DNA of 64,000 bases from an uncultured Gammaproteobacteria bacterium (lineage in GTDB: Bacteria; Pseudomonadota; Gammaproteobacteria; SURF-13). The translations under genes were made by a program, and so were the position numbers. The notes beneath the pieces were generated by a model that was not told where the DNA came from, made no database searches, and saw nothing but the letters and a program-made list of their open reading frames with translations. The DNA is taken from the NCBI GenBank assembly GCA_947085325.1, contig CAMTVY010000010.1, positions 121,276 to 185,275 of the forward strand, read 5' to 3'. Below are positions 7,431-58,914 of the stretch, piece by piece. The stretch's first letter is position 1. The number at the start of each line of letters is the position of its first letter.

Positions 7431-7788
7431 CCCAAGGGTAAGCCGCAGAGGAACTTGGTTCGATTGCCGCAGGAACATGCGGCCTGAGCTAATCCTATGC
7501 CAAGCTTGACATAGAAAACCACTCGTCGCCAGAATGTGCATCGAGCCGCCCTACTATTGCACTGATGCTTATTGGCGATCAGGAATTGAATCGGAGAAAG
7601 CAGCTGAGTTTATTTTTTTGTGAGGTTGTTTTTGTTGCAGGGCCCAATGCGGCCGCTCGCCGCTGAACCAGTGAGTGCCCGGATGGAATGAAATGAAATC
7701 CAGGAATTAATAATGAGGCCCGCAAAATCAATGGGCCAGACTCTGAGCCCTTTAATGCCTCCCTGCTGAAAATACTGCGGACGTAAAA

Positions 7789-7830
7789 AAACCGGCAAGC
7801 TGCATAAACAGCTTGCCGGTTTTTTGTTGA
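7789..7830. terminator. bidirectional rho-independent terminator hairpin downstream of the ppiC-type gene
   Basis: GCCGGCAAGCTG-cataaa-CAGCTTGCCGGT, a perfect 12-bp stem flanked by A7 on one side and T6 on the other. Confidence 0.65.
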
Positions 7831-7833
7831 GCG

Positions 7834-8727
7834 CTACTTGTCCGCTGGTGCTTCTGGTGCGGCAGCAGGTTCTGCGGGCTTCGTGGCCGGTGCGTCCTTG
7901 ATCTCGATCTTGGCCTTGCTCTTGAGCGTGGTGAGGTAGGTTTCGATATCCTTGTTCTGGAGAATGGAGCGGATGTTGTCCTTCACCTTTTCGAATGCCG
8001 GGGGCTGGATGTCACGCGTGTCTTCCAGCTTGATGATGTGCCAGCCAAACTGCGTCTGCACCGGGGTCTTGGTGTAGGTGCCTTTTTCCATGGTCTTTAC
8101 TGCATCACCAAAGGGTTGCACCATCTGTCCGGCTTCAAACCAGTTCAGGTTGCCGCCTTCCTTGGCCGAGCCGGTATCCTGGGATTTCTCCTTGGCGAGT
8201 GCGGCAAAGTCACCACCCTTGTCGAGTTGGGTAATGATGGCCTTGGCTTCGTCTTCGGTCTTCACCAGGATATGGCGTGCGTGATATTCCTTTCCGGTCA
8301 TCGCGCCTATGCGGCTTTCATATTCCTTTTGCAGGGCCTCATCGCTGAACTTGATGGACTCGATGTGAGCGCTGATGGCGGCGCCAGCGAGGATGTTGCG
8401 CGTCTGGTTTGCAATTTCGGCGGCGACATCGGGTTTCTTGTCCAGGCCTTTCTTTATGGCCTCGTTGTAAATCAGCTCACGGCTAATGAGTTCGTCTAGG
8501 GTTACCTTGCGATCTTCCTCGTCGTTGCCGGTAGTTGGACGCGACATGGCACGCTGGCGCGCGTAGGCATCGTAGGCCGCCTGCTGGATGGCGACACCAT
8601 TGACGATTGCAATGGGTGTGGCGGAGGCAGTGCTGCCGGATGTGCTCTCTGGTTTGTTGTTGCAGGCGGAGATGAACGCCGTGCTGAACAGGACGGCGGC
8701 GAGTGCGATGGTTTTCATGGATAACAT
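7834..8727 (-). CDS. PpiC/parvulin-type peptidyl-prolyl cis-trans isomerase, lipoprotein
   Basis: Signal peptide with lipobox FISAC. Rotamase domain (GKEYHARHILVKTEDEAKAI...GGDFAALAKEKSQD...FGWHIIKLED). Confidence 0.8.
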   Translation of the reverse strand: MLSMKTIALAAVLFSTAFISACNNKPESTSGSTASATPIAIVNGVAIQQAAYDAYARQRAMSRPTTGNDEEDRKVTLDELISRELIYNEAIKKGLDKKPDVAAEIANQTRNILAGAAISAHIESIKFSDEALQKEYESRIGAMTGKEYHARHILVKTEDEAKAIITQLDKGGDFAALAKEKSQDTGSAKEGGNLNWFEAGQMVQPFGDAVKTMEKGTYTKTPVQTQFGWHIIKLEDTRDIQPPAFEKVKDNIRSILQNKDIETYLTTLKSKAKIEIKDAPATKPAEPAAAPEAPADK

Positions 8728-8731
8728 GTGG

Positions 8732-9019
8732 CTAGTCCTTGGTGGGGTCAAATTCTTCGGGGGTCAATGCCCGTATGCTGAGCGCGTGAATTTCAGAGTG
8801 CATCTCGCGCGCCAGTGCATCATATACCAGTCGATGCCGTGCGAGCAGCCCCATGCCGGCGAAAGTCCCGGCCACGACGGTGACGTTGAAGTGGCCGCCG
8901 CCGGCCTGGGCGCCGGCATGGCCTGCATGTTTATGGCTTTCGTCGCTGATGACAAGGTGGTCGGGCGCAAGGGCGGCGGTCAGGCGTGCCCGGATGGTGT
9001 CGACGCGCGCGGCGGTCAC
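8732..9019 (-). CDS. bolA: BolA family transcriptional regulator
   Basis: IRARLTAALAPDHLVISDESHKHAGH...HFNVTVV is the BolA fold motif. GTG start. Confidence 0.8.
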   Translation of the reverse strand: MTAARVDTIRARLTAALAPDHLVISDESHKHAGHAGAQAGGGHFNVTVVAGTFAGMGLLARHRLVYDALAREMHSEIHALSIRALTPEEFDPTKD

Positions 9020-9318
9020 TATGGCAGCACCTGTTTGAAGGGCCTTACCGTGACGTGGGCATATACGCCTGCGCTGCGATACGGGTCGGCCTCGGCCCAG
9101 GCCTCGGCCTCGGCGAGCGAGCCGAATTCGGCGACGATCAGGCTGCCGGTAAATCCGGCGGGACCGGGGTCGGGGCTGTCGATGGCAGGGTGCGGGCCAG
9201 CCAGCACCAGCCGTCCGGCATCGCGCAGTGCATGTAGTCGCGCGAGGTGGGCGGCGCGTGCGGCGCCGCGCAGCGCGAGACTGTCCGGAACATCTTCTCC
9301 GTAGATGGCGTAGAGCAT
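9019..9318 (-). CDS. yciI: YciI family protein
   Basis: [17 protein letters not shown]... about 100 aa, YciI-like. The stop overlaps the bolA start by 1 nt. Confidence 0.8.
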
Positions 9319-9319
9319 G

Positions 9320-9862
9320 TTATTTTTCGTCCGTGGGGGGCGGCAGGTAGCGCGACAGGTACACCGCTTGCAGGATGACAAACAGCAGCGTCAGGCCCAC
9401 GATGCCGAACAGCTTGAAATTGACCCAGGTGTCGGTGTCGAAGTAATACACCACGTACAGGTTGGCGAACCCGAGCACGCAGAAGAACACTGTCCAGCTC
9501 AGATTGAGCCGCTTCCAGAGGGTGGCGGGCAGTGTCATGCTGCCCCCCATCATGCGCTGGGTGAGGTTTTTGCTGCCCAGATACTGGCTGCCGAGAAAGG
9601 CCGCGGCGAACAGCCAGTTCAGCACCGTGGGTTTCCATTTGATGAACATCTCGTCCTTGAGCAGCAGGGTGGCGCCGCCAAACACCACAATCAGCGCCAG
9701 GGTGACGAGATGCATGGTTTCGAACCGCCGGTGCTTGAGCCAGAACGCACCCACCTGCACAAAAGAGGCGGCAATGGCCACGGCGGTGGCGACATAGATG
9801 TCGTAGACCTTGTAGGCGGCAAAGAACAGCAGGATGGGGAATAGATCAAACAGGAATTTCAT
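9320..9862 (-). CDS. yciB: intracellular septation protein A (YciB/IspZ)
   Basis: [19 protein letters not shown]..., a 5-TM protein, with the yciB-yciI neighbourhood conserved. Confidence 0.9.
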
Positions 9863-9893
9863 GGCGCTATTTTAGCAGGGACAGCGGGTGATA

Positions 9894-12458
9894 TTACGGT
9901 GGCAGCAGGTTTTTCAGGCGATACAGGGTTTCGAGTGCCTGGCGCGGTGTAAGTTCATCGGGTTTGAGCGCGCGCAAGGTCTCGGTCAGGACATGCGGTG
10001 GCGTGGGCGCAAGCAGCGGCAATTGTGCGCTGTTCGCGGGCGGCATCTGCCCGCCCTGTTCGAGCGCGTACAGGCGCTGCTTGGCCTGTGTGATCACTGC
10101 CTGCGGCACACCCGCCAGCGCCGCCACCTGCAGGCCGTAGCTCTGGTTGGCCGGGCCGTCCTTGACGGCGTGCAGGAATACTATGCCGTCGCCGTGCTCG
10201 GCCGCGTCGAGGTGCACATTGGCGCAGGCGGGCAACTGCTCGGGCAGTGTGGTCAACTCGAAGTAGTGGGTGGCAAACAGGGTGTACGCGCCGAGCCGTG
10301 CGGCGAGATAGTGGGCACAGGCCCAGGCGAGCGAGAGACCGTCGAAGGTGCTGGTGCCGCGCCCGACCTCGTCCATCAGCACCAGACTTTCACGCGTGGC
10401 GTTGTGCAGGATGGTGGCGGTTTCCGTCATCTCGACCATGAAGGTGGAGCGCCCGCCCGCCAGATCGTCGGAGCTGCCGATGCGGGTGAAGATACGGTCG
10501 ATCGGGCCTATCGTCGCCCGCGCCGCAGGCACATAGCTGCCGATGTGGGCCAACAGCACGATGAGCGCGATCTGGCGCATGTAGGTGGATTTGCCGCCCA
10601 TATTGGGGCCGGTGATGATGAGCAGGCGGCGGTTGTCGTTGAGCTCGATATCGTTCGGCACAAACGGCGTGTCGAGTGACGCCTCCACAATCGGGTGGCG
10701 CCCGTCAATGATGGTAATGCCCGCCGTGGCGCTGAGTTCCGGTGCGCGCCAGTCCAGGCTGTCCGCGCGTTCGGCGAGCGTGGCGAGCACGTCAATTTCG
10801 GCCAGCGCGGCGGCGCACTGTTGCAGCGGAATCAGCAGAGTGACCAGCGCTTCGAGCAACTGGTCGTACAGCATTTTTTCGCGCGCCAGCGCACGTTCAG
10901 CGGCGGAGAGCGCCTTGTCTTCGAAGCTTTTCAGTTCCGGCGTGATGTAGCGTTCGGCGCCTTTCAGTGTCTGGCGGCGTTGGTAGTCGTCAGGAATTTT
11001 GCCGGACTGGGCGCGGCTGACTTCAATGTAATAACCGTGTACGCGATTGTAATTCACCTTGAGCGTAGCGATGCCGGTGCGCTCACGCTCGCGCGTCTCC
11101 AGCGCCAGCAGATAGCCGCCCGCGTTCTCGCGTAATTCGCGCAACTCGTCCAGCTCGGCATCGAAGCCGGGCGCGATCACGCCGCCGTCGCGGATCAGCA
11201 TGGGCGGGTTTTCCACCAGCGTCCGCAGCAGGTGCTGATGCAGGGCGGCATGGTCGCCGGTCTGCTGCGCCAGTTCAGCGATGCGCGGTGCATCCAGCCG
11301 AACCAGCAGGGCATGCACGGCGGGCAGCAAGCCGAGCGCCGTGCGCAGTTGCGCGAGATCACGCGGGCGGGCCGATTTGAGCGCCACCCGCGCGAGGATG
11401 CGTTCGATATCGCCGATGCCGCGCAATACCTCATGCAACGGCTGATAGCGCTGATCTTCCAGCAGCACGCCGAGGCTGTGCTGACGCATGCGCAGCACGC
11501 TGTGGTTGCGCAACGGCCGGTTGATCCAGCGCTTGAGCAAGCGGCTGCCCATGGCGGTGGCAGTGTGATCGAGCACGCCGCAGAGGGTGTGCTGGTGCGC
11601 GCCCGACAGGCTGAACTCGATCTCCAGATTGCGGCGGCTGGCGGCATCGAGCAGCAGGGCGTCGCTGCGGTTTTCCAGGCTGAGCGTGTGCAGGTGGGGC
11701 AGGCGGCTGCGCTGTGTGTCCTGCACGTAGGCCAGCAGGGCGCCCGCTGCGGCGATACCCAGCAGCGCCTGCGCGCAGCCGAAACCGGCCAGGTCGCGGG
11801 TGCCGAATTGGGTGCACAGCAGGCGCGTGGCCGTGTCGAGGTCGAAGTGCCACGGTGCCACCCGCCGTACGCCACGCCAGCCGTTCAGCGCTGCGATGGG
11901 GGCCAGGGCCTCGTTCACCAGTATTTCCGCCGGTCGCAGACGCTCAAGCTCGATCGCCAGCGCCTCTTCTCCCTCCATCTCGAGCACGCTGAAGCGGCCG
12001 CCTCCCAGATCGAGCGCCGCCAGCCCGAACCGGCCCTGCTGGGCATGCAGGCAGACGATCAGGGCGTCGCGCCGCTCCTCCAGCAGCGCCTCGTCGGTGA
12101 CCGTGCCGGGTGTGATGATGCGCGCCACTTTGCGCTCCACCGGGCCCTTGCTCCTGGCCGGATCGCCGACCTGTTCGCAGACCGCGACCGACTCCCCGGC
12201 GCGCACCAGCCGCGCAAGATAGACGTCGGCGGCATGATAGGGCACGCCCGCCATCGGGATCGGCGCGCCGCCCGACTGGCCGCGCGCCGTGAGCGTGATG
12301 TCGAGCAGGCGGGCGGCCTTGCGCGCGTCCTCGAAAAACAGTTCGTAGAAATCCCCCATGCGGTAAAACAGCAGCGTATCCGGGTGTTCGGCCTTGATGC
12401 GCAGATATTGCTGCATGACGGGCGTGTGCTGCGCCCCTGGGGTGTCGGGTTTGTTCAT
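9894..12458 (-). CDS. mutS: DNA mismatch repair protein MutS
   Basis: Full-length MutS ([35 protein letters not shown], the Walker A motif [13 protein letters not shown], and the MutS C-terminal domains). Confidence 0.97.
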
Positions 12459-22259: not shown

Positions 22260-23053
22260 ATGTCATAGTTTTGAGTCCGTGGGCGCTCGCGCTGGCGGCA
22301 GTACTGGTGCTGGCGCTGGCGCTGCTTTCGCTACGGCTGCGACTCACGCTGACGCAGGAAATCATCATTGCGGCGCTGCGTACCACGGTGCAGTTGTTGC
22401 TGGTGGGTCTGGTGCTCAAGACGCTGTTCACGCATGTCCATCTGGGCTGGGTGGTGCTGATAGCATGCGTGATGTTGCTGATAGCGGGACGTGAAGTGGT
22501 TGCGCGCCAACGCCATGGTTACGCCGGCGTCTGGGGCTTTGGCATGAGCATACTGTCCATGTTTGTCGCCTCGTTTTCGGTGACCGTGCTCGCCCTGGTG
22601 GTGTTTATAGGCCCCACGCCCTGGTATACACCGCAATATTCCATTCCTCTGCTGGGCATGATGCTGGGAAATACCATGAGCGGTGTGGCGCTCGCGATTG
22701 ATCGTCTGACCCAGACCGCATGGCACCAGCGCGCGCAGATCGAGGCGCGGCTGCTGCTGGGGCAGGATTGGTCAGAGAGTGTGAGTGGCCTGCGCCGTGA
22801 CGCGGTGCGGGTGGGGCTGATTCCCACCATCAACGCCATGGCGGCGGCAGGCGTGGTGAGCTTGCCCGGCATGATGACCGGGCAGATACTGGCAGGTACG
22901 CCGCCGCTGGAGGCGGTAAAGTACCAGATACTGATCATGTTTCTGGTGACCGCAAGCACCGGCTTTGGTACGCTTGCGGCCGTCTGGCTGGGCGCCCGGC
23001 GCCTGTTTGATGAGCGCGAGCGGCTGCGTATCGACCGTTTACGGGCGGAATAG
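22256..23053 (+). CDS. fetB: iron export ABC transporter permease FetB/YbbM (UPF0014)
   Basis: Aligns along its length with E. coli FetB (IQLLLVG...SLPGMMTGQILAG...KYQIMVTF). Confidence 0.85.
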   Translation: MNVIVLSPWALALAAVLVLALALLSLRLRLTLTQEIIIAALRTTVQLLLVGLVLKTLFTHVHLGWVVLIACVMLLIAGREVVARQRHGYAGVWGFGMSILSMFVASFSVTVLALVVFIGPTPWYTPQYSIPLLGMMLGNTMSGVALAIDRLTQTAWHQRAQIEARLLLGQDWSESVSGLRRDAVRVGLIPTINAMAAAGVVSLPGMMTGQILAGTPPLEAVKYQILIMFLVTASTGFGTLAAVWLGARRLFDERERLRIDRLRAE

Positions 23054-26419: not shown

Positions 26420-27364
26420 CTACTTGCGCAGTCCCAGCAGGATGGCCTCGGCGCGTGCGCCGAAATAAACGTATAACCCGAGGCCTACCAGCAGGCCCAC
26501 CGCGGTCAACATCATCCACACGCCCTGCAGTGTCTCCGCGCCGTTGTTCAAGGCGCCCTTGAACATCAGCATCAAGGCCTCGATGGAGACTGCAATCAGG
26601 ATCGCGGCGATGAAGCGGGTGATGGTGCGCCGGGTGGAACTGTGGCGGAGGATATCTTTCTGCATCAACACCTCTTCTTCCAGGATGGTCTTCCCCAGAT
26701 CGAAGATGGCGAGCGCCAGGGTTATGAAGATGATAACGCTGAACGGCTTGAGCTGTATGGCCTCGAGGGTATGTCCTGCCTGAAACAGGGTGGCGAGATC
26801 GGTGAAGGCGGAATACAGCAGCACCGCCACCACGCTGAACAACCCGATCACAATCAGCGCATAAATGGATTTGAACACTGGTTGAAACCTGCTCCGCGAA
26901 CCGTCACCCATGAGAAATTCGATGGTCTTGGCCAGATCAACATCAAGCACCAGATAGCCTGTGGTTTGTGTGTGACTGTCATGGATTTTTATCACCGCCG
27001 TGATGCACAACTTTCTGCTGGCGTTGGATAAATAAGGATCGGTGACGGTGATCTGATTGTTGGCGCGCGCTTGAATAAAGTAAGGACGCTGGCTGCGATC
27101 CTTGCTCTTGCCGTCTTCGATGGCCTGCTTCCAGTAGGGGCTGGTGATGTTGTCACTGGTTTGCATGCCGCTGGCATCGAGAATATAGAGCAGGTCAACA
27201 AAACGATAGAGTTTTGCGAGTGACTGCATCGCCTTGTGTTGCGCCGTGGGGTCATCCATCAGGCACGGTTCCGCGATGCCGGTCAGGATGGAGGCCACCA
27301 TGTCCTGTACGCCTGCGCGATGTTCGTGATAACGCTCGATGACGTTAATGTAATTCATGGTCAA
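26420..27364 (-). CDS. hypothetical membrane protein: N-terminal cytoplasmic Cache/PDC-like domain plus four C-terminal TM helices
   Basis: No N-terminal TM or signal peptide. DPYLSNASRKLCITAVIKI resembles the Cache/PDC core motif. Four hydrophobic helices follow and no output domain is present. GC is lower than the flanks. Confidence 0.5.
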   Translation of the reverse strand: MTMNYINVIERYHEHRAGVQDMVASILTGIAEPCLMDDPTAQHKAMQSLAKLYRFVDLLYILDASGMQTSDNITSPYWKQAIEDGKSKDRSQRPYFIQARANNQITVTDPYLSNASRKLCITAVIKIHDSHTQTTGYLVLDVDLAKTIEFLMGDGSRSRFQPVFKSIYALIVIGLFSVVAVLLYSAFTDLATLFQAGHTLEAIQLKPFSVIIFITLALAIFDLGKTILEEEVLMQKDILRHSSTRRTITRFIAAILIAVSIEALMLMFKGALNNGAETLQGVWMMLTAVGLLVGLGLYVYFGARAEAILLGLRK

Positions 27365-27379
27365 CCCCGGTTATCCTGC

Positions 27380-28672
27380 CTAGAATTGAAAGTCGGCCTG
27401 TAGCCAGAATTTGCTCAAGTCGCGTGACAAGGTGAGATTGCGCGCCACGTTGGTGGCATTGGTGTCGCCGCTGTAGTCGGCATATTTGGCCAGCAGGGTG
27501 AGAGTCTTGTTCACCTTCTTGCTGGCTTGCAGGCCCAGCTCGCTGCCGTAGTCGTAGCCGCCGGTGTCGGAAGAATAGCGGTCGTAACGCGCGAGCCAGT
27601 GGATGCCCTTCCAGCTTTTTTCGAGGGTGACGAAAATATCTTGCAAGCCATCCCTGGGCGTGCCCAGGAACTGATCGGCCCAGCCGTTGAAGGCATGCCC
27701 TGTGGCAAACGGCGTGGCAAAGCCGTATACCCCGTCACCGCCCAATACTTCGTAGTTCAATTTGACCTGGACGGTCTTGACCTCGGCGCCCAGAACCAGA
27801 TTCCTGTAGCTGGCGTCGACGCTGCTTGCACCGTTTTTATAATCACTCTGATTGGCGTACTCCGCAGTGTAGAAAAATTTGGTGCCGCCTTCCGGCTGAT
27901 GCCAGCCGTCAAAACGCAGGCCCAGTGTTTTATTGGACGCGGTGACTGCAATTGGCTGCCCCGGCGCATAGTCCAGCAGGTAGGCATAGCCGATCAGGGT
28001 GCCGGGCTTGAAACCGCGATAGGCGATGTTCAAAAGCTCACCGTTGAGCCTGACGTCACCCTGGCTGCTATTCTGGCCGAAAATACGGTTGGCGTTGGTT
28101 ACGTGAGCAAAGAAGACGTTGACGTTATTGGTCACTGCGGACGTTGCGGAAAAGGCGTCGAATGTCTGTGAATTCTGCCGCCAGCCTACGCTGCCGATGA
28201 AGCGCTGGTTGTCGAGATTGATGATCTGCCGTCCGTACCTGATAGTGGTATCCGCAAGCAGCGTATCGGGGCCTCCTTTGTAACTGATAAAGCCCTGATT
28301 GATCTCGGTGCTCTCCGGATCGGCAACGGTGGGGTACTGGGTCAAGCCGTTGATGGTGTCGTTGTAGCGGTTGCTGCCGAGATTGCGGATGTCTTCAAAC
28401 TGCACAAAGACGCCGAAGCCCTTGAAGTCACCGGTGGCGTAGCCAAGCTGTGTGCGCAGGGTGAAGGCGCTGGCCTTGTCGGACTTGCCTTCCTGGGTGA
28501 CCGACTCGAAGCGCGGACGCAACTGGCCGGAGACCTTGCCTCCGGTAATGGCCTCAAGAAAGGCTCCCTCGGCATGAGCCGCCGGCGATACAAGCAGGCC
28601 CAGCAGGTGAATGAGGCCCACATAATAGACAGGTCTGCGCATGCGGTTTACGGATGGTGTGATGAAGTTCAT
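27380..28672 (-). CDS. outer-membrane porin, alginate-export (AlgE-like) family, adjacent to the nitrate-type ABC transporter
   Basis: Signal peptide ending AHA-EG. Alternating beta-strand pattern and a C-terminal aromatic residue (WLQADFQF). Family assignment is from motif resemblance only. Confidence 0.6.
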   Translation of the reverse strand: MNFITPSVNRMRRPVYYVGLIHLLGLLVSPAAHAEGAFLEAITGGKVSGQLRPRFESVTQEGKSDKASAFTLRTQLGYATGDFKGFGVFVQFEDIRNLGSNRYNDTINGLTQYPTVADPESTEINQGFISYKGGPDTLLADTTIRYGRQIINLDNQRFIGSVGWRQNSQTFDAFSATSAVTNNVNVFFAHVTNANRIFGQNSSQGDVRLNGELLNIAYRGFKPGTLIGYAYLLDYAPGQPIAVTASNKTLGLRFDGWHQPEGGTKFFYTAEYANQSDYKNGASSVDASYRNLVLGAEVKTVQVKLNYEVLGGDGVYGFATPFATGHAFNGWADQFLGTPRDGLQDIFVTLEKSWKGIHWLARYDRYSSDTGGYDYGSELGLQASKKVNKTLTLLAKYADYSGDTNATNVARNLTLSRDLSKFWLQADFQF

Positions 28673-28705: not shown

Positions 28706-29527
28706 TCAGGCGGCATGCCTGGCATGGCGCTGATAGAGAAATTTCAATACCTCACTGCGCAGGCTCGCGTAACGCGCATCTTCGGCCAGCGCCAAACGGT
28801 TGCGCGGACGCGGCAGGGCGATCTCCAGTACTTGCCCGATCGTGGCCGCAGGGCCGTTGGTCATCATGACGACACGATCGGAGAGCAGCACCGCTTCGTC
28901 CACGTCGTGGGTCACCATCATTACCGTGCAGCCGCTGGCCGCAACGATGCGCATCAGTTCGTCCTGCAGCAGTGCGCGTGTCAGGGCATCCAATGCACCA
29001 AAGGGTTCATCCAGCAGCAGCACCTTGGGTTGCATGGAGAGCGCGCGCGCGATGCCGACGCGCTGCTTCATCCCGCCCGAGATTTCGTGCGGATATTTAT
29101 GCTGCGCCTCCTTGAGGCCGACCAGGTCGAGCACCTGTTCGGTGCGCTCACGCAAACGCGGTTTTTTCTCGGTGCGGCCAAAGACGCGCTCCACCGCGAG
29201 GTACACGTTGCCGAAGCAGGTGAGCCAGGGCAGCAGCGAGTGATTCTGGAACACCACGCCGCGATCCGGGCCGGGCCCGGTGATCTCGCGCCCGTTGCAG
29301 AGCATGATGCCGCCGCTCGCCGGAGTGAGGCCCGCCACAAGATTGAGCAAGGTGGATTTGCCGCAGCCCGAGTGGCCAATAATGGAAACAAACTCACCTT
29401 GTTGAATCGCCAGGTTGATGTCGGTGATGGCCGTGTAGGTGCCCTGTCTGGTGACAAAGACCCGCTCTACATTTTCCAGTTGTATGAATTTTTTGTGCAT
29501 GGCTGTTCCTTTTGGGTCAACTGTCAA
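28706..29527 (-). CDS. ABC transporter ATP-binding protein, nitrate/sulfonate/bicarbonate (NrtD/SsuB/CmpD) family
   Basis: Walker A GHSGCGKST, signature LSGGMKQR, Walker B LLLDEPF. Confidence 0.85.
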   Translation of the reverse strand: MTVDPKGTAMHKKFIQLENVERVFVTRQGTYTAITDINLAIQQGEFVSIIGHSGCGKSTLLNLVAGLTPASGGIMLCNGREITGPGPDRGVVFQNHSLLPWLTCFGNVYLAVERVFGRTEKKPRLRERTEQVLDLVGLKEAQHKYPHEISGGMKQRVGIARALSMQPKVLLLDEPFGALDALTRALLQDELMRIVAASGCTVMMVTHDVDEAVLLSDRVVMMTNGPAATIGQVLEIALPRPRNRLALAEDARYASLRSEVLKFLYQRHARHAA

Positions 29528-30423
29528 TATTCAAAGCGTCTGGCGAGCATGAGCAGCGCCTGTTCGAGTAACAGACCGATGATGCCGACGACAAAAATGG
29601 CGATGATGATGTGCTCGACATTGAGATTGTTCCATTCGTCCCACACCCAGAATCCGATTCCCACGCCGCCGGTCAGCATCTCCGCCGCCACGATGACCAG
29701 CCAAGCCACACCGACGGACAGCCTGACCCCGGTCATCATGTAGGGCAGTACTGCGGGAAACAGGATTTTGCTGAATATCCTGAATTCCGACAGGTTCAAT
29801 ACGCGCGCAACATTGAGGTAGTCGACCGGCACCTTGGTTACGCCGACCGCCGTGTTGATGACCATGGGCCAGATGCTGGAGATGAAGATCACCCAGATCG
29901 CGGCGGGCTGCGCCTCCTTGAATACCAGCAAGCCGATGGGCAGCCACGCCAGCGGCGACACCGGGCGCAGCAGGCTGATGATCGGCGCCGTCATTTTGTT
30001 TAGAAAGCTGAAACGTCCGATCATGAACCCCAGCGGGATGCCGACCAGCGCCGCGAGACCGAAGCCCAGCCCGACCCGTTCGAGGGAGTGCAGGATATTC
30101 CAGCCGATGCCTTGGTCATTCGGCCCGTTGTCGTAGAAGGGATCGCTGAATAACTCGACGGCGGAGTGCCAGGTTTTCACCGGCCCCGGCAGCTGCGGAC
30201 TGTACTCGGCGAGCAGTGACCACCCCAGCAGGAACACGATCAGACCGAGCAGCGGCGGGATCGCCCCTTTGGCCAGCGCATCCATGCCGCCATACAGTGA
30301 GGCCGTCCAGTTTCGCGCAGCCGGCCGTTGGGCCACGTTCGGCGTGGGCTGCTGCACTGAACCGGCGGCGTCATTCCTGCTTATTGGGATGACGTCTTTT
30401 TTCGTCATGGGCACCACGTTCAT
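29524..30423 (-). CDS. ABC transporter permease, NrtB/SsuC family
   Basis: BPD_transp_1 permease fold. Start set at MNVVPMTKKD (ATG 30423), preceded by AAGGAGG-ctcccg. The ORF is open to 30504 but that would overlap the SBP gene. Confidence 0.8.
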   Translation of the reverse strand: MNVVPMTKKDVIPISRNDAAGSVQQPTPNVAQRPAARNWTASLYGGMDALAKGAIPPLLGLIVFLLGWSLLAEYSPQLPGPVKTWHSAVELFSDPFYDNGPNDQGIGWNILHSLERVGLGFGLAALVGIPLGFMIGRFSFLNKMTAPIISLLRPVSPLAWLPIGLLVFKEAQPAAIWVIFISSIWPMVINTAVGVTKVPVDYLNVARVLNLSEFRIFSKILFPAVLPYMMTGVRLSVGVAWLVIVAAEMLTGGVGIGFWVWDEWNNLNVEHIIIAIFVVGIIGLLLEQALLMLARRFEY

Positions 30424-30436
30424 CGGGAGCCTCCTT

Positions 30437-31708
30437 TCAGGCCTTGAGCTGGAAGCTTGCGGCATACTGTTTGGGATTTTTTCCGTCCCATACCGTGCCG
30501 TCAAACAAGGTGCTGCTGCGCAACGGCTCGGCCGGCACCGGGACCTTGAGTTGCTCAGCCGCCTGTTTGTATAAAGCGATTTGATTTATCTGACTCGCCA
30601 CGGCCAGATAATCCGGATCCTCGGTCAGCAAGCCCCAGCGTTTATGCTGTGTCATGAACCACATGCCATCGGATAGATAAGGGAAATTGACGCGGCCGTC
30701 GTTGTAGAATTTCATGTAGTCGGGATCGATCCAGGATTTGCCGAGCCCGTTTTCATACTTGCCCAGCATGCGGCCTTCAATCACCGGATCGGGCGCATTC
30801 ACGTAAGACTTGCGGGCGATGATCTTGGCGACCTGTGGGCGATTAGCGGTGGTGTCTATATATTTCGACGCCTCCAGCACGGCCATGATGAGCGCGCGTG
30901 CCGTGTTGGGATATTTCTGGACAAACTCCAGCGTGGTGCCCAGCACCTTTTCCGGGTGGTCTTTCCAGATGGCCTGCGTGGTGGTGGCGGTGAAGCCGAC
31001 CTGGTCGTAGATCGCGCGCGCATTCCACGGCTCGCCGACACAGTAGCCATCCATGTTGCCTACGCGCATGTTCGCCACCATTTGCGGCGGCGGGATCACG
31101 ATGTTCTTGACGTCCTTGTAAGGATGAATGCCGTGCGCCGCCAGCCAGTAGTTGAGCCACATGGCATGGGTGCCGGTGGGGAATGTCTGTGCGAAGGTAT
31201 ACTCGCTCTTTTCAGTATCAATCAGTTTTTTCAGGCTCGCACCATCCACGGCGCCTTTGTCCTTGAGTGCGTTCGACAGGGTGATGGCCTGGGCGTTGTG
31301 GTTGAGGCCCATCAGGATCGCCATGTCTTTTTTCTGGCCGCCGATGCCGAGCTGCACGCCGTAGATGAGGCCGTACAACACGTGCGCGGCGTCCAGTTCG
31401 CCCAGCATCAGTTTGTCGCGCACCCCGGCCCAGCTCGCCTCTTTGGTCACCGTCACGTTGAGGCCGTATTTTTTGTACAGGCCGAGCTCGCCCGCCATCA
31501 CCACGCTGGCGCAGTCGGTGAGAGGAATAAAACCAATCTTGAGATCGGTTTTTTCCGGTGCATCGGAACCGGCGGCATGCACGCGGCTGCTGAGACCGGC
31601 GGGCATCACGCTGTAGATGCTTGCGGCGAGCAGCGATTTCATGAATTCACGGCGCGTCGTGCCCGTAGTGCTGCCGGTGGGTAGTTCAGTCTGTGTGTCA
31701 TGCGTCAT
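30437..31708 (-). CDS. ABC transporter substrate-binding protein, NrtA/CmpA-like, Tat-exported
   Basis: Twin-arginine signal (TRREFMKSLLAASIYSVMPAGLSSRVHAAG), then an NMT1/NrtA-type fold. Confidence 0.85.
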   Translation of the reverse strand: MTHDTQTELPTGSTTGTTRREFMKSLLAASIYSVMPAGLSSRVHAAGSDAPEKTDLKIGFIPLTDCASVVMAGELGLYKKYGLNVTVTKEASWAGVRDKLMLGELDAAHVLYGLIYGVQLGIGGQKKDMAILMGLNHNAQAITLSNALKDKGAVDGASLKKLIDTEKSEYTFAQTFPTGTHAMWLNYWLAAHGIHPYKDVKNIVIPPPQMVANMRVGNMDGYCVGEPWNARAIYDQVGFTATTTQAIWKDHPEKVLGTTLEFVQKYPNTARALIMAVLEASKYIDTTANRPQVAKIIARKSYVNAPDPVIEGRMLGKYENGLGKSWIDPDYMKFYNDGRVNFPYLSDGMWFMTQHKRWGLLTEDPDYLAVASQINQIALYKQAAEQLKVPVPAEPLRSSTLFDGTVWDGKNPKQYAASFQLKA

Positions 31709-31742
31709 GGCAAAATCTCCTCATCAAGTTATACATAGCGCC

Positions 31743-31821
31743 AAAAAAAAGCGCCCATCCCGCAAGGATTGCTCCCGCAGAATGGACGCCGTTGTCCATG
31801 CGCAAGCCGGCATTGGCTTGC
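31743..31821 (-). promoter_or_regulatory. candidate ANTAR-responsive antitermination leader upstream of the nrtA-like gene
   Basis: In the RNA sense there are two adjacent 6-7 bp hairpins with hexaloops AAUGCC and AACGGC (A at position 1, G at position 4). They are separated by 2 nt, then about 30 nt of GC-rich sequence and a U8 tract 35 nt before the start codon. Confidence 0.55.
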
Positions 31822-31896
31822 TGGTACTTTAGTTACGGAACCAGCCCTTCGTTGGGAGGGTTCTTGAATCTGCTGCGCTTAAGCCGACTTACGACT

Positions 31897-32484
31897 TCAC
31901 ATCAATAATTCCGCCGCTGTAATGACCGTCTGCGCCACTTCCGTCATGCGCAGGTTGCGTGTCATGGCCAGCTTGCGCAGGGCTTGATAGGCCTCGTCTT
32001 CCGAACACTGGCGCTGTTTCATGACCATCCCCTTGGCGCGCTCGATCAGCTTGCGCTCCTCCAGCGCAGTAGTGGCCTTGGTCAACTCACCGCGCAGGGC
32101 CTGAAACTCCTGAAAGCGCGCGATGGCGACATCGATGATGGGTTTAATGCGTTCACTGCCGAGGCCGTTGACGATATAGGCGCTGACGCCGGCATGCATC
32201 GCGAGGCGAATATTTTCCTCGTCGCCGTCATGGGTGAACATCACCAGCGGCAGGTCACGACCGATACAGCACATGTGTTCCAGGGTGTCGCGGTCGGGTG
32301 ACTCCATGTCGATGATGATGACGTCCGGCTGAATCTCCGCAACGCGCGCGCGCAGGTCGTCATGGGGCGCGATGTGCGCGGCCACCGCATGGCCTGCCTG
32401 ACGCAAGGCCTGCTCCACTGCTCCGGCCCGGTGCGGGCTTTCATCCACCAGCAGCACACGTAACGCTTTAGACGGTTTATTCAT
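31897..32484 (-). CDS. nasT: ANTAR-domain response regulator (NasT/AmiR family antiterminator)
   Basis: CheY-like receiver (LLVDESP...DVIIIDMESPDRD...VMFT) plus a C-terminal ANTAR domain (ERKLIERAKGMVMKQRQCSEDEAYQALRKLAMTRNLRMTEVAQ). Start at MNKPSKALRVLLVDE; the longer ORF from 32580 would encode through a terminator hairpin. Confidence 0.85.
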   Translation of the reverse strand: MNKPSKALRVLLVDESPHRAGAVEQALRQAGHAVAAHIAPHDDLRARVAEIQPDVIIIDMESPDRDTLEHMCCIGRDLPLVMFTHDGDEENIRLAMHAGVSAYIVNGLGSERIKPIIDVAIARFQEFQALRGELTKATTALEERKLIERAKGMVMKQRQCSEDEAYQALRKLAMTRNLRMTEVAQTVITAAELLM

Positions 32485-32504
32485 ATTCAGCCGGGCGGCC
32501 AGCA

Positions 32505-32548
32505 GGTATAAAAAGAACCCACTCTCCGAGGAGAGGCGGAGAGTGGGT
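32505..32548 (-). terminator. intrinsic-terminator-like hairpin between the two ANTAR regulator genes
   Basis: In the RNA sense: ACCCACUCUCCG-ccucuccu-CGGAGAGUGGGU (a 12-bp perfect stem) followed by UCUUUUUA. It ends 21 nt before the nasT start codon. Confidence 0.5.
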
Positions 32549-32611: not shown

Positions 32612-33193
32612 TCAAGCATGCGCCAGTAAACTCTGTTCCATGACGATGAAGTCCTGCGCTACATCCACGGTGCGTTTGTTGCGAGTCAGGGCGAGCCTGC
32701 GCAGCGCCTGCTGGGCGCCGTTCCGGGAGATGCGGGCTTTCTGCATGAGGATGGCCGCAGCCTGCCCTATAAGTCTGCGTTCAGCCGCAGTCGTGTGGGT
32801 CTGTTCCAGTTGATTGAGCAGAAGCTGTGTTTCATTGAAGCGGATGATGGCAACATCCATGATCGGCTTTACCCGCTCCGGCCACAGTCCATCGACAATA
32901 TAGGCGCTGATGCCGGCTTTCAGTGCCGCGTTGATAGTCGGCGCATCGCCCTGGCGGGTAAACATGACGATCGGGCATGGCTGGCCAAGATAAATGCGTT
33001 CAATCTGGCGCAGTTGCCTGTGACTAACGTGTTCCAGCGCAAACACCAGTATGTCGGCTTCAATGGTTTTGAGTGCGAGCTGTAGTTCCGGGATGCTGGT
33101 GACGAGCTCGACTATCTCGTGTCCATGCTTGTGCGTGGCGGACTGTAGCAGTTCCGCATCTTCTGCATTTTCCACGACTAGCGCGATGCGCAT
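32612..33193 (-). CDS. second ANTAR-domain regulator with degenerate (pseudo-)receiver domain
   Basis: ANTAR domain (AERRLIGQAAAILMQKARISRNGAQQALRRLALTRNKRTVDVAQ). Receiver-like N-terminus with Ala at the expected phospho-acceptor position (ILVFALEH vs IIIDME in the neighbour). Confidence 0.8.
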   Translation of the reverse strand: MRIALVVENAEDAELLQSATHKHGHEIVELVTSIPELQLALKTIEADILVFALEHVSHRQLRQIERIYLGQPCPIVMFTRQGDAPTINAALKAGISAYIVDGLWPERVKPIMDVAIIRFNETQLLLNQLEQTHTTAAERRLIGQAAAILMQKARISRNGAQQALRRLALTRNKRTVDVAQDFIVMEQSLLAHA

Positions 33194-33397
33194 GAAAGTC
33201 TCCCGATCAAGTGTTGTCGGGGAAGTATCAGCAATAGCCGTGCCAACCAGAGAAAGCGTATTATTTTCAGTGAATTAAAGGTTGTATGGTGCTCGGTCTG
33301 GGAACCGTTGCGCACCATTCTGCGTGTGTCAGGGAGCGAGTTGAATCATTTTGGGGCGGAATGTGTTCGTGCAGTCTTGCCCAAGGCTGCGCAGGCG

Positions 33398-33700
33398 TTA
33401 GTGGTACTTTAGCAGCCAGCTTCGGAATTCATCGGCGGGTAAGGGGCAGGAGAAGAAGTAGCCCTGTGCCTTGTCGCAACCGAGTGCAATCAGCCGGTCA
33501 AGAGTTTCCTGAGTCTCCACGCCTTCGGCCACGACTTGCAGGTTGAGGTTGTGCGCCAGCTCAATAGTAGAGCGTACGATGGCGGCGTTGTCGTCATCGG
33601 TTACCATGTCTATCACAAAAGACTTGTCCACCTTGATTTCATCTACCGGCAGCTTCTTGAGGTAACTCAGAGACGAGTAACCTGTGCCTAAGGTCGTCAA
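33398..33700 (-). pseudogene. 3' remnant of an EAL-domain (c-di-GMP phosphodiesterase) gene
   Basis: Encodes only the last ~100 aa of an EAL domain ([28 protein letters not shown]...VAEGVETQETL...) and lacks the upstream catalytic half. The frame hits a stop about 16 codons upstream, exactly where the prfC-3' copy begins. Paralogous to the C-terminus of the intact GGDEF-EAL gene at 33902-36157. Confidence 0.7.
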
Positions 33701-33901: not shown

Positions 33902-36157
33902 TTAGCGAAGCTCGAATTTGAACGTCTGTATCCGCTCCCAGCTCTGGACCAACCCGGCAAACTCATCGGCCGGGAGCGGCTTGCTGAAGTAGTAGCCTTG
34001 GGCCATGTCGCAGCCCTCCTCGCGCAGAAATTTGAGCTGCTCGAAGGTTTCCACTCCCTCCGCGATGACTTTCATGTTGAGCGTGCGGGCCATGGCGATG
34101 ATGGTCTTTGCTATCGCGGCATCATTGGGATCAGTGGCGATGTCACGTACGAAGCTGCGGTCTATTTTTAAGAAATCTATGGGACAGCGCTTGAGGGTAC
34201 TTAGGGATGAGTGGCCCGTACCAAAATCATCAAGCGAGCAGGACACGCCGTCCGCTTTTAGCGCCTCCAGGCACTGGATGGCATCCTCTGGGTCGCGCAT
34301 CAGCATGCTCTCGGTTAATTCAAGATCGAGTCTGGATGCCGCGAGGCCGCTCTCCTCGAGCGCCTTCCTGACCGTCCGCAGGAAATCTTTTTGTCGCAAC
34401 TGCCGGGCCGACACATTCACCGCTAGGCGCAGTGGGGGGAGGCCCATCTGCTGCAATATCCGTGTCTGCGCGCATGCAGCTTGCAGTACCCACGCGCCGA
34501 TTGGAGCAATCAGCCCGGTCTCCTCGGCCACGGGGATGAACTCCAGTGGCGTGATGAGTCCTTCCTCGGGTTGGTGCCAGCGCAGCAGTGCCTCCATGCC
34601 GATGATTTCTCCGGTACGGAGAACCACTATCGGCTGGTAGTGCAGCAGGAACTCTCCTCTCTCTAGGGCGCGGCGCAGACCGCTTTCCAGAGTCAGACGT
34701 CGGCTGGCACGGTCATGGAGATCGGGTGTGTAGAGTCTGAAGGTGTTACGCCCAGACTCCTTGGCATGATACATGGCGGTGTCGGCACTTTTGAGGAGCC
34801 CTTCCGCATCGTCTTCATCCAGCGGGTACAGGGTGATGCCGATGCTTACGCTCACATGTATCTCTCGGCCATCAACAATGAAAGGAAGATCCAGCAGCTG
34901 CTGGATCTTCCGAACCATACCGGCGACTTCGCCCACGTGATGAATCTCGGGGAGCACTATGGCAAATTCGTCTCCTCCGAGGCGGGCAATGGTATCACTC
35001 GCCCGGAGGCCGGTGCCGAGCTGCGTGGCTACCATCTTAAGCAGCTTGTCACCCGCGCTGTGTCCGAAGGTATCGTTGACATATTTAAAGTAATCGATGT
35101 CTATGAATAGCACGGCGACAATGTAATTCCCGCGGTCGGCATCGCTTATGATCTGCCGCAGGCGGTCATCAAGCAGCTGTCGGTTGGGAAGCCCGGTCAG
35201 AGAGTCATACAGCGCAAGCTGTTTGAGGCGCTCCTCGGCCTGTTTGCGCTCGGTGATGTCGCTCATGAGACAGTAGTGACCAGAGAAATTATTACGCTCG
35301 TCGTAGATTCCGACCATCACTGCATGCATGTAGAAAATCGAACCATCTTTGCGCAGTGCTCTGGCTTCCACATCCGCTTTTCCGCTCGCGCGCAAGCGCT
35401 GGTAGGCGGCCTGCATCAGGCCAAGGTCATCCGGCTGCACTGTCAGCGATCGCTCGGCGTCGATCAGGTCTTCTGGCGCGTAACCGACCATGTCGGCGTA
35501 GGACTTGTTGACCATACGAAAGCGCCCCTCTACATCCAGCCGCGCGATCCCCTCAACAGCATGTTCCAGTGCGGTGGCCGTTTCACGCAGCGCCTGTTCC
35601 ATCTTGGCACGTTCGGCAATCTCGGCGCGTAATAAATAATTTTGCTGTGAAAGGTGGAATGCGCGCGCGAGTTCCGCGCTGTACAATTCATGCTGTGCCC
35701 ACACAGCCAGCTCGTGCAGTGTGTCGAGTTGTGTCTGGTCCAGCTGGCGTGGGCGGTAGTCTGCGATGCACAAGGTGCCGATCCGGCTGTCGTTCGGTGC
35801 GCTGATCGGGAAGCCGGCGTAGAAACGGATATGCGGCGCTCCTGTCACCAACGGATTGTCAGCGAAGCGTTTGTCGAGCCGCGCGTCGGGAACGACCATG
35901 GCACGATCTCCCAGAATGGTGTGCCCGCAAAATGAAATACTGCGTGGCGTCTCGGAGGCTTGCAGGCCCTGGCAGGATTTGAACCACTGGCGTTCCGCGT
36001 CCACCAGGGTAATGAGCGCGATCGGTACATCGAACAGCCGGGTGGCGAAGCGCGTGATGCGGTCAAAGCGCTCCTCGGGAGGTGAATCCATGATGGACAG
36101 GGCATGAAGCGCGGCCAGCCTGATCGGTTCATCTGGCGGCAGCGGCGGTTCTTTCAT
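33902..36157 (-). CDS. GAF-PAS-GGDEF-EAL multidomain c-di-GMP signalling protein
   Basis: GAF (FDVPIALITLVDAERQWFKS), PAS, GGDEF (RLGGDEFAIVL), EAL (EALLRW...DDFGTGHSSLSTL). Confidence 0.9.
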   Translation of the reverse strand: MKEPPLPPDEPIRLAALHALSIMDSPPEERFDRITRFATRLFDVPIALITLVDAERQWFKSCQGLQASETPRSISFCGHTILGDRAMVVPDARLDKRFADNPLVTGAPHIRFYAGFPISAPNDSRIGTLCIADYRPRQLDQTQLDTLHELAVWAQHELYSAELARAFHLSQQNYLLRAEIAERAKMEQALRETATALEHAVEGIARLDVEGRFRMVNKSYADMVGYAPEDLIDAERSLTVQPDDLGLMQAAYQRLRASGKADVEARALRKDGSIFYMHAVMVGIYDERNNFSGHYCLMSDITERKQAEERLKQLALYDSLTGLPNRQLLDDRLRQIISDADRGNYIVAVLFIDIDYFKYVNDTFGHSAGDKLLKMVATQLGTGLRASDTIARLGGDEFAIVLPEIHHVGEVAGMVRKIQQLLDLPFIVDGREIHVSVSIGITLYPLDEDDAEGLLKSADTAMYHAKESGRNTFRLYTPDLHDRASRRLTLESGLRRALERGEFLLHYQPIVVLRTGEIIGMEALLRWHQPEEGLITPLEFIPVAEETGLIAPIGAWVLQAACAQTRILQQMGLPPLRLAVNVSARQLRQKDFLRTVRKALEESGLAASRLDLELTESMLMRDPEDAIQCLEALKADGVSCSLDDFGTGHSSLSTLKRCPIDFLKIDRSFVRDIATDPNDAAIAKTIIAMARTLNMKVIAEGVETFEQLKFLREEGCDMAQGYYFSKPLPADEFAGLVQSWERIQTFKFELR

Positions 36158-38564: not shown

Positions 38565-39953
38565 ATGGATTTTTTCCCGATTTTTCTGAACATCAAAGCC
38601 AGACCCTGCCTGGTGGTGGGCGGCGGCGAGGTTGCCGCGCGCAAGACACTGCAATTATTGCGCGCGGGCGCCATGGTGCATGTGGTAGCGCCTGAGTTGT
38701 GCCAGCGATTGCAGGAGCATGCAGCGCGGCACGATATTCTCTGGCGCAACGGGCGGTTCGAGGCCGCTGATGTCACAGGCTGTGTGCTCGTTGTTGCCGC
38801 GACGGATGATAGTGCCGTCAATCAGGCCGTGCACGCAGCCGCACTGCAACAAAATATCCCGGTCAATGTGGTGGACAACCCTGCCCTGTGCAGTTTCATC
38901 ATGCCTGCCGTGGTCGATCGCTCCCCGGTGTTGATTGCAGTGTCCTCCGGTGGCGCGGCGCCGGTGCTCACGCGCCTGTTGCGGGCACGGCTGGAAACGC
39001 TGATCCCCGCTGCCTATGGCAGGCTTGCCACGCTCGCCGCGAAATTCCGTGTGGCGGTGAAGCAGCGTGTTGTCGATGCTGCGCAGCGTCGCCGGTTCTG
39101 GGAAAGTGTATTGCAAGGCCCGGTGGCGGAGCGGGTCTTCGCGGGGCAGGGGCAGGCCGCCGAAGCGGCGCTGCAATCGGCGCTGGAGAGCGCGGATACC
39201 GCAGTGACCGCAGGCGAAGTCTATCTGGTCGGTGCCGGGCCGGGTGACCCCGATCTGCTCACGTTTCGCGCCTTGCGCCTCATGCAGCAGGCCGACGTCG
39301 TGTTGCACGACCGGCTGGTGCCGGATGCCATTCTCAACCTCGTGCGTACCGATGCCGAGCGCATCTACGTGGGCAAGCGCCGCAGCGAACACACGCTGCG
39401 CCAGGACATGATCAACCAGCTGCTGGTGCAGCATGCCAAGGCTGGCAGGCGCGTGCTGCGCCTGAAGGGCGGCGACCCGTTTATTTTCGGGCGCGGCGGC
39501 GAGGAGATTGCCACGCTGGCCGAGGAGGGCATTCCGTTTCAGGTCGTGCCGGGTATTACAGCAGCGTCGGGTTGCGCGGCGTATGCCGGCATCCCGCTCA
39601 CGCACCGCGAGTACGCGCAGTCGTGCGTGTTTGTCACCGGCCAGATGAAAGACGGCGGCATGGACTTGAACTGGGCCGGGCTGATTCAGCCGCAGCAGAC
39701 CATCGTCGTGTACATGGGGCTGGCGGCGGTCGATATACTGTGCCGCGAACTGATCGCGCACGGACTGCCCGCCACTACGCCGAGCGCGCTGGTCGAACAG
39801 GGCACCACACCGCACCAGCGCGTGCTGACCGGCACCCTCGACACCTTGCCGGGGATCATCGGCAACACCGAAGTGCACGCGCCCACGCTGATCATCGTGG
39901 GCGATGTGGTGCGGCTGCACGACAAACTGGCGTGGTTTCGTTCGGAGCGCTGA
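38565..39953 (+). CDS. cysG: siroheme synthase CysG (uroporphyrinogen-III C-methyltransferase / precorrin-2 dehydrogenase / sirohydrochlorin ferrochelatase)
   Basis: N-terminal NAD-binding and ferrochelatase module ([24 protein letters not shown]) plus a C-terminal SAM methyltransferase ([15 protein letters not shown]). Confidence 0.93.
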
Positions 39954-58373: not shown

Positions 58374-58449
58374 TGGTGGGCCGTGTAGGGGTCGAACCTA
58401 CGACCTACTGATTAAGAGTCAGCTGCTCTACCAACTGAGCTAACGGCCC
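58374..58449 (-). tRNA. tRNA-Lys (anticodon CTT)
   Basis: Reverse complement: GGGCCGT-TA-GCTCAGTTGGTAGAGC-A-GCTGA-CTCTTAA-TCAGT-AGGTC-GTAGGTTCGACCCCTAC-ACGGCCC-A-CCA. Confidence 0.8.
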
Positions 58450-58573
58450 GGTACTAAAACGTGTTTGCCGCAATCTCTGGCAGGGCTGTAATGCCTGTGC
58501 CAGTCACATCCATCTGCCTGGGTGTGTGCTCCCGCTTCACGGGCCTACCCAACGGGGCTGAGGGGTCATATTA

Positions 58574-58650
58574 TGGGGTGAGCGATGGGGCTCGAACCCA
58601 CGACCACCGGAATCACAATCCGGGGCTCTACCAACTGAGCTACGCCCACC
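58574..58650 (-). tRNA. tRNA-His (anticodon GTG)
   Basis: Extra 5' G(-1) pairing with C73 is diagnostic for tRNA-His. Anticodon loop TTGTGAT. Encoded CCA. Confidence 0.9.
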
Positions 58651-58690
58651 ATAATTGGCTGCTAGTGTACTACATTCCTGCATATTCGGG

Positions 58691-58764
58691 TGCGCCCGGC
58701 AGGACTCGAACCTGCTACCCCCGGCTTAGAAGGCCGGTGCTCTATCCGGATGAGCTACGGGCGC
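58691..58764 (-). tRNA. tRNA-Arg (anticodon TCT)
   Basis: GCGCCCG-TA-GCTCATCCGGATAGAGC-A-CCGGC-CTTCTAA-GCCGG-...-CGGGCGC-A. The 3' end reads ACCC, so only CC of the CCA is genome-encoded. Confidence 0.85.
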
Positions 58765-58837
58765 AAAATGGTGTCTCAGGCCGCCCCGGCCTTCGCCCGG
58801 AAGGCTGCTCCGCAGACCCATTTAGCTCCCGACGAAA

Positions 58838-58914
<77 letters not shown>

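Follow-up and report, generated by a model that had tools for sequence, protein, structure and literature searches.

Gene content of the nrtA locus

The window analyzed here, a 64-kb stretch of DNA from an uncultured gammaproteobacterium, carries on its minus strand two genes encoding ANTAR-domain proteins, designated ANTAR-1 and ANTAR-2, which are followed by a nrtA-like gene and by additional genes for transport. An earlier note on this DNA had placed two ANTAR genes immediately upstream, and a nrtA-like gene downstream, of a set of RNA hairpins, and searches against Pfam agree with each of these assignments. The genes, as well as nrtA's ribosome-binding site, are as follows:

32612-33193, minus strand: ANTAR-1, a NasT paralogue confined to the lineage, in which both the receiver and the ANTAR domain are degenerate (Pfam ANTAR, just 37.7 bits)
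31897-32487, minus strand: ANTAR-2, the NasT orthologue, receiver plus ANTAR, 196 aa from the ATG at 32487 (Pfam Response_reg and ANTAR, 76.6 bits)
31717-31722, minus strand: ribosome-binding site GAGGAG of nrtA, read from the sequence and lying outside all hairpins
30437-31708, minus strand: nrtA-like periplasmic substrate-binding protein with a Tat-type RREFMK signal, predicted to be the first regulated gene (Pfam NMT1_2, 3e-105)
29524-30504, minus strand: nrtB permease (NCBIfam TIGR01183, 252 bits; cutoff 209)
28706-29527, minus strand: nrtC/D ATPase (NCBIfam TIGR01184, 350 bits; cutoff 292)
27380-28672, minus strand: Alginate_exp-like porin (Pfam)
26420-27364, minus strand: Cache-domain protein (Pfam)

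Among proteins of solved structure, the best relative of the NrtA-like protein is Synechocystis NrtA (2G29, 1.6e-88), with the bicarbonate protein CmpA ranking behind it. The porin and Cache genes are probably the distal genes of the nrtABC operon: their order after nrtC is kept in the related loci L081, L082, and L087. The next gene after the Cache-domain gene, prfC, lies on the opposite strand. In about ten more distant loci, too, nrtA occurs together with the porin gene. On the upstream side, the order of genes on the minus strand is an aspartate ammonia-lyase-like gene, a GAF-PAS-GGDEF-EAL gene, ANTAR-1, and ANTAR-2. The rest of the window consists of housekeeping genes (ligA, mutS, nusA-infB, pnp, mfd); cysG is found at 38565-39953, and no gene for a nitrate or nitrite reductase was found in the 64-kb window.

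Variation in gene content is apparent among relatives. In L088, whose NrtA is 86% identical, cynS, encoding cyanate lyase, lies between nrtA and nrtB (6264-6719), and its presence within the operon means that the substrate of the transporter is not certain and that the family may also handle cyanate. In L083, a Halothiobacillaceae MAG, the region 7259-10642 contains nasT, nrtA, and the porin gene but neither nrtB nor nrtC, and VWA, PP2C, and kinase genes come next.

Hairpins and terminator between nasT and nrtA

The hairpins are located on the minus strand in the interval between the stop codon of ANTAR-2 (31899-31897) and the start codon of nrtA (31708-31706), in the following order of transcription:

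31838-31863, minus strand: P0, candidate hairpin GAACC..CCC-AACGAA-GGG..GGUUC (folding; relatives)
31802-31821, minus strand: P1 hairpin GCAAGCC-AAUGCC-GGCUUGC, 7 bp, A1/G4 hexaloop (sequence)
31782-31799, minus strand: P2 antiterminator hairpin AUGGAC-AACGGC-GUCCAU, 6 bp, A1/G4 hexaloop (sequence)
31751-31790, minus strand: intrinsic terminator stem-loop GGCGUCCAUUCUGCGGGAGCAAUCCUUGCGGGAUGGGCGC(U) (terminator scan, 17 pairs; MFE folding)
31743-31750, minus strand: U8 tract of the terminator (sequence; terminator scan)

P1 and P2 are joined by the 2-nt linker GC (31801-31800), and P2 is followed by 31 nt, by the U8 tract (31750-31743), and by a further 34 nt leading to the nrtA ATG. The tandem hexaloop hairpins of the minus strand, with A1 and G4 in both loops and a linker of 2 nt, are exactly as the earlier note had read them, and the U8 tract that it had described before nrtA belongs to the terminator. 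When folded alone, P1 and P2 have predicted energies of -11.3 and -6.7 kcal/mol, respectively, and the 40-nt segment spanning both folds exactly as two hairpins (-20.0 kcal/mol, z -3.1). An exhaustive scan of both strands for dual A..G hexaloop hairpins in which each stem has 5 bp or more returned this site as the only one in 64 kb. In dinucleotide shuffles such sites arise by chance at 0.35 per window when stems of at least 5 bp are required and at 0.05 when stems of at least 6 bp are required, the latter pattern being present in 7 of 150 shuffles of the window. The dual-hairpin pattern by itself is thus only moderately improbable, and the site is secure because of what lies beyond the pattern, namely its position, the overlapping terminator, and its conservation.

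The energy of the terminator is about -27 to -29 kcal/mol; at -29.2 kcal/mol, its z is -5.1 and none of 200 shuffles is as stable. Moreover, it is the MFE structure in every construct that contains its sequence. Because the 5' arm of the terminator (31790/89-31773) contains loop bases 4-6 of P2 (GGC) as well as the entire 3' arm of P2 (GUCCAU), P2 and the terminator are mutually exclusive. Specifically, the nascent RNA from 31865 to 31782 folds as P0, P1, and P2, and the full leader folds as P0, P1, and the terminator. Such exclusion between the second hairpin and a terminator stem had been anticipated earlier with the stem itself left undrawn; the terminator is now defined by both the scan and the folding, and the folding, which might have shown the lack of any stable terminator overlapping the second hairpin, instead revealed a stable one.

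An ANTAR target has previously been defined as a dual hairpin that overlaps a terminator (PMC3369931), and each sequence-testable component of that definition can be located in the window. Firstly, the definition calls for two adjacent stem-loops of at least 3 bp each, separated by a variable linker, and stems of 7 bp and 6 bp with a 2-nt linker are present. Secondly, it calls for hexanucleotide loops with A1 and G4 in both hairpins, which are here AAUGCC and AACGGC. Additionally, P2 overlaps a correctly oriented intrinsic terminator, and ANTAR-domain proteins are encoded in the genome by the two genes immediately upstream (PMC3369931). The remaining component, relief of termination through binding of the RNA by the ANTAR protein, is predicted here for ANTAR-2. 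Judged from its sequence, the window element therefore possesses every sequence-testable property of an ANTAR target, and its arrangement is, by analogy, the default-off, protein-locked type described for such targets (PMC3369931).

Conservation and transcription of the leader

Conservation was assessed in a comparative set of 80 loci from Beta- and Gammaproteobacteria, retrieved by a profile of NrtA homologues, in which each locus was tested automatically for an A..G hexaloop hairpin followed downstream by a U-run, with the 3' arm of the hairpin pairing in an MFE stem with the segment adjacent to the U-run. A P2 overlapped by a terminator with a U-run was found in 64 of the 80 nrtA loci, and the upstream P1 was found as well in 57; several of the 16 loci that failed the automated test show the motif by eye. 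The P2 core GGAC-AAMGGC-GUCC (M = A/C) is nearly invariant across the 64 loci, and AACGGC or AAUGGC is the usual consensus of the P1 loop.

An alignment of 39 sequences, all short-linker examples, revealed that A1 and G4 of the loops are invariant and that double-sided changes have occurred in 10 of 13 pairs (6 of 7 in P1). Since the loci used for covariation were picked by a scan demanding at least four paired bases beside each loop, the inner pairs among the 88% of cells that are paired in this alignment owe their pairing to the selection, although the range of pair types remains informative; none of 500 shuffles reaches this degree of pairing, and no slid register comes near it. Across loci, there is three-way covariation among the 5' arm of P2, the 3' arm of P2, and the 3' arm of the terminator. 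At pair 4, the triplet formed by these three positions is G-C-G in 40 loci, A-U-A in 9, C-G-C in 2, and U-A-U in 1, and a similar three-way pattern is seen at pair 5. Three-way covariation of this kind is what two alternative pairings, both of them functional, would predict.

The covariance-model scan proposed in the earlier note was likewise carried out. A model that includes the window sequence assigns the site 43.9 bits, and a leave-one-out model, constructed from other genomes only, recovers it at 41.2 bits (E about 7e-10), the next match in the window scoring 13.8. With filters off, neither covariance model found a further ANTAR site above 13.8 bits in the window; the second-best match (22924-22973, minus strand; 13.7-13.8 bits, rough E about 0.03) lies within an ORF and has a second loop of 13 nt, and is regarded as a chance match. 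When applied to the 80 loci, the model yields 74 matches, all of which are on the nrtA strand and nearly all of which are just upstream of nrtA. In L086, the closest relative (NrtA 96% identical), the 79 nt extending from P1 to U8 are identical to those of the window and both flanks have diverged.

Second dual-hairpin sites were observed elsewhere, downstream of nrtC or before a porin gene (L053:6063-6115, L069:9141-9192, L050:10618-10655, L034:10635-10672, L008:12501-12547, L041:9154-9193, and L002:4178-4216). These second sites suggest multi-site NasT regulons in those seven loci; the window has one site.

Upstream of P1, the candidate P0 is composed of 3 bp, a 2x2 internal loop, and 5 bp, which together present the loop AACGAA with A1 and G4; its energy is -10.3 kcal/mol (z -2.7), and it is part of the MFE structure of both the nascent and the full leader. 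As modelled, P0 is probably a third, weaker hexaloop hairpin. A stronger equivalent, with an A..G hexaloop and a different stem sequence, was found in all seven of the close relatives examined, so that the leader in this lineage probably comprises three hairpins of the ANTAR type instead of two. About a third of the 80 loci likewise have two hexaloop hairpins preceding P2, a count that includes some spurious matches on the sigma-54 promoter and that compares with a background of 0.19 per 130 nt. The cited ANTAR literature (including PMC3369931 and PMC10783516) describes the targets as dual hairpins only.

The hairpins start about 35 nt past the nasT stop codon, and no promoter was detected between that codon and P0/P1, either in a sigma-70 scan or in a search for the sigma-54 pattern with up to two mismatches. 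With this tolerance, the overall count of sigma-54 patterns in the window is at chance level. Between nasT and the hairpins, CTGGTTCCGTAACTAA was dismissed by eye as a sigma-54 promoter, the -24 GG being present and the -12 GC absent. Two features further upstream are relevant to the origin of the transcript:

33230-33245, minus strand: sigma-54 promoter consensus TGGCACGGCTATTGCT upstream of ANTAR-1, the sole zero-mismatch match in 64 kb
32517-32548, minus strand: terminator-like hairpin between ANTAR-1 and ANTAR-2 (terminator scan, 12 pairs and UCUUUUU)

The sigma-54 site at 33245-33230 is positioned 1.4 kb upstream of P0/P1, and this element is also present before ANTAR-1 in L081 and before nasT in L083. 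About 60-100 nt further upstream of this promoter are GGTGC/GCACC half-sites that appear NtrC-like by eye. On the simplest reading, the nrtA leader RNA would be made by read-through from nasT and ultimately from the sigma-54 promoter at 33245-33230. The earlier note had placed the hairpins in a 5' leader; the site does precede nrtA, but it is probably intercistronic, lying between nasT and nrtA, and since no promoter was detected between nasT and the hairpins, the term intercistronic attenuator fits better. The terminator-like hairpin separating ANTAR-1 from ANTAR-2, before which the covariance model found no ANTAR-type hairpins, raises the possibility that ANTAR-2 has its own unrecognised promoter.

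Read-through from nasT would mean that the terminator before nrtA also ends the uninduced nasT message, and the question arises of whether the site is a plain intrinsic terminator of the upstream nasT to which the small hairpins are incidental. The terminator is situated about 107-147 nt past the nasT stop codon with no promoter between, and so probably does end nasT transcripts made in the default state. That this is its whole function is nonetheless very improbable, given that the hexaloops with their A1 and G4 are conserved while the stems covary, and that P2 and the terminator covary three ways. Furthermore, the motif is found before nrtA in loci that have no ANTAR gene in the upstream flank of up to 6 kb (for example, L012 and L016), and most betaproteobacterial orthologues have, between nasT and P1, a sigma-54 promoter (TGGCAC-N5-TTGC) that provides the motif with a promoter of its own.

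Putative regulatory proteins and related RNA switches

The element is, with high probability, a protein-dependent transcription attenuator of the ANTAR/NasT type that governs whether transcription continues into nrtABC and, probably, into the porin and Cache genes. According to the proposed mechanism, the small hairpins would form during transcription in the order P0, P1, and P2. If left unheld, P2, which amounts to -6.7 kcal/mol alone, would be invaded by the downstream sequence, and the resulting 17-pair terminator (about -27 kcal/mol), together with U8, would then stop transcription 34 nt before the nrtA start codon. Active ANTAR-2 would instead bind the A1/G4 hexaloops of P1 and P2, lock P2, and block the terminator, such that the operon is transcribed.

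ANTAR-2 aligns end to end with EutV (6WSH), its best match among solved structures (3e-24), and with Rv1626, and it has the receiver-like domain and C-terminal ANTAR domain that are characteristic of NasT. In about 60 of the 80 loci, the gene directly upstream of nrtA is NasT-like, and its product is always closer to ANTAR-2 than to ANTAR-1. Mutational analysis of NasR has demonstrated that alteration of R340, or the change W362A, abolishes RNA binding, that K347R weakens it about 10-fold, and that K345R behaves like the wild type (PMC7496416); ANTAR-2 keeps the equivalents of R340, K345 (as R), K347, and W362 (as Y). ANTAR-1 is 37% identical to ANTAR-2 and belongs to a small clade with about 11 close homologues in the database. 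At the positions equivalent to NasR K345, K347, and W362, members of this clade have Q, then A (or E, V, T, or G), and then a non-aromatic residue, and at the receiver Asp position they have Ala. Having lost the equivalents of K345, K347, and W362, ANTAR-1 probably does not bind RNA. ANTAR-2 is proposed to be the RNA-binding antiterminator of the nrtA leader on the grounds of the linkage of NasT and the residues kept, the degeneracy of ANTAR-1, and the sharing of the same three-hairpin leader by relatives that possess an ANTAR-2 orthologue only (L083, L085, L087, L088, and L089). The earlier statement that two ANTAR regulators are encoded beside the target is correct in that both genes adjoin it, but the conserved NasT orthologue, in which the RNA-contact residues are intact, is the proximal one alone.

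The switch might operate as proposed with ANTAR-1, or a hetero-oligomer of ANTAR-1 and ANTAR-2, as the acting protein in place of ANTAR-2 alone. The two genes are adjacent and occur as a conserved pair in L081, L082, and L086, the closest relatives, and ANTAR-1 is directly behind the only perfect sigma-54 promoter of the window; moreover, the leader has three hairpins, and NasT of P. putida has been reported to be tetrameric (PMC10783516). The loss of lysines and of an aromatic residue that matter for binding by NasR, and the leaders served by an ANTAR-2 orthologue only, make a direct role for ANTAR-1 unlikely, and ANTAR-2 alone is retained as the preferred antiterminator.

A tblastn search of the 64-kb window revealed no nasS paralogue, the sole NrtA-like gene carrying a Tat-type signal. 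The window thus has no gene for a cytoplasmic NrtA-like sensor of the NasS type, and the signal that would activate ANTAR-2 is presumably nitrate or nitrite under nitrogen limitation. The region between aspA and ANTAR-1 contains, relative to L081, L086, and L087, an insertion with the GAF-PAS-GGDEF-EAL gene (33902-36157, minus strand) and a truncated EAL fragment (33401-33700, minus strand; profile positions 153-236). In 7 of the 80 loci, the upstream 6 kb also include GGDEF/EAL genes, and c-di-GMP has been reported to inhibit the binding of NasT to RNA in P. putida (PMC10783516). A more speculative proposal, which we regard as doubtful, is that a NasT switch has been rebuilt here without an adjacent NasS, with a three-hairpin leader, with ANTAR-1 as a pseudo-NasT taking the NasS role of a partner-switching inhibitor or co-factor, and with a hint of c-di-GMP input.

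Switches of the same type are formed by NasT and NalA, by NasR and nasF, and by EutV and the eut leaders (PMC3369931, PMC10783516, PMC11387622, PMC5424462). The nirBD leader of Pseudomonas aeruginosa and P. putida, known as both NalA and P11 (PMC11387622; RF00625, controlled by NasS-NasT), likewise has two A1/G4 hexaloop hairpins, whose hexaloops are there bound by NasT in an A1/G4-dependent manner (PMC10783516, PMC11387622). As in the window, its second hairpin competes with a Rho-independent terminator, and its transcription is nitrogen-regulated through sigma-54/NtrC, a property that the window may share by way of the sigma-54 site 1.4 kb upstream. The two differ in target, which is nirBD in the one case and the ABC transporter nrtABC with the porin and Cache genes in the other, and in the window there is no nasS beside nasT, there is no sigma-54 promoter directly upstream of the hairpins, and the leader has the extra upstream hairpin P0. 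The nasF leader of Klebsiella oxytoca is similarly a nitrate-assimilation leader in which an ANTAR protein, NasR, prevents an intrinsic terminator by acting on A1/G4 hexaloops (PMC3369931, PMC7496416); NasR, however, is a one-component NIT-ANTAR protein, whereas the regulator in the window has the receiver-ANTAR architecture of NasT. The eut leaders of Enterococcus faecalis, recognized by EutV, also comprise dual-hairpin ANTAR targets with a P2 that overlaps the terminator (PMC3369931), but they serve the ethanolamine pathway in another phylum, and the activating signal arrives via the EutW kinase.

At gathering thresholds, Rfam reports only tRNAs and sX9 in the whole window and nothing at the site. 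The tRNA genes include a cluster of four at 58377-58914 (minus strand), and the match to the Xanthomonas sRNA sX9 (60111-60184, minus strand; 59 bits, above threshold) adjoins mfd. Under the permissive thresholds of cmscan, the window scores 21.9 bits for P11 (RF00625; gathering threshold 70) and 23.2 bits for narK (RF03032; gathering threshold 43.2), and the window copy is thus outside both families by their own thresholds. Orthologous leaders in L046 and L040 pass the narK threshold (46.2 and 45.5 bits against 43.2). The narK consensus shares with the window the CCAACGGCGG P1 hairpin and a P2-like ACGACAAAGACGUCG segment, but its 5' third reads GGCaCAgcucUUGCU, which is sigma-54 promoter-like and which the window lacks; the shortfall of the window is plausibly owed in large part to the missing GGCaCAgcucUUGCU start. 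A further difference is that Rfam annotates one hairpin only for narK and names no protein partner.

The match of orthologous leaders to a family typed by Rfam only as 'Cis-reg' could be taken to mean that the RNA senses a ligand as a riboswitch or regulates in cis in some other way that needs no protein, and the paper that probably describes the narK motif mentions neither narK, ANTAR, nor nitrate in its main text. This explanation is exceedingly improbable in view of the conserved parts of the RNA, which are two or three tiny hairpins with no junction that could form a pocket and which fit exactly the ANTAR target defined by experiment (PMC3369931, PMC10783516), and in view of the nasT gene linked to the motif in about 75% of loci. 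Across the Beta- and Gammaproteobacteria, the Rfam narK motif almost certainly represents the NasT/ANTAR target of nitrate-transporter operons.

Though ordinary, the switch described here exemplifies a known bacterial RNA switch very clearly, and it leaves the known mechanism unchanged. It provides a confident regulatory annotation for the nrtABC-porin-Cache operon in an uncultured gammaproteobacterium, and the combination of three hairpins in place of two with a NasT paralogue that has lost its RNA-binding residues could broaden the NasS-NasT paradigm.
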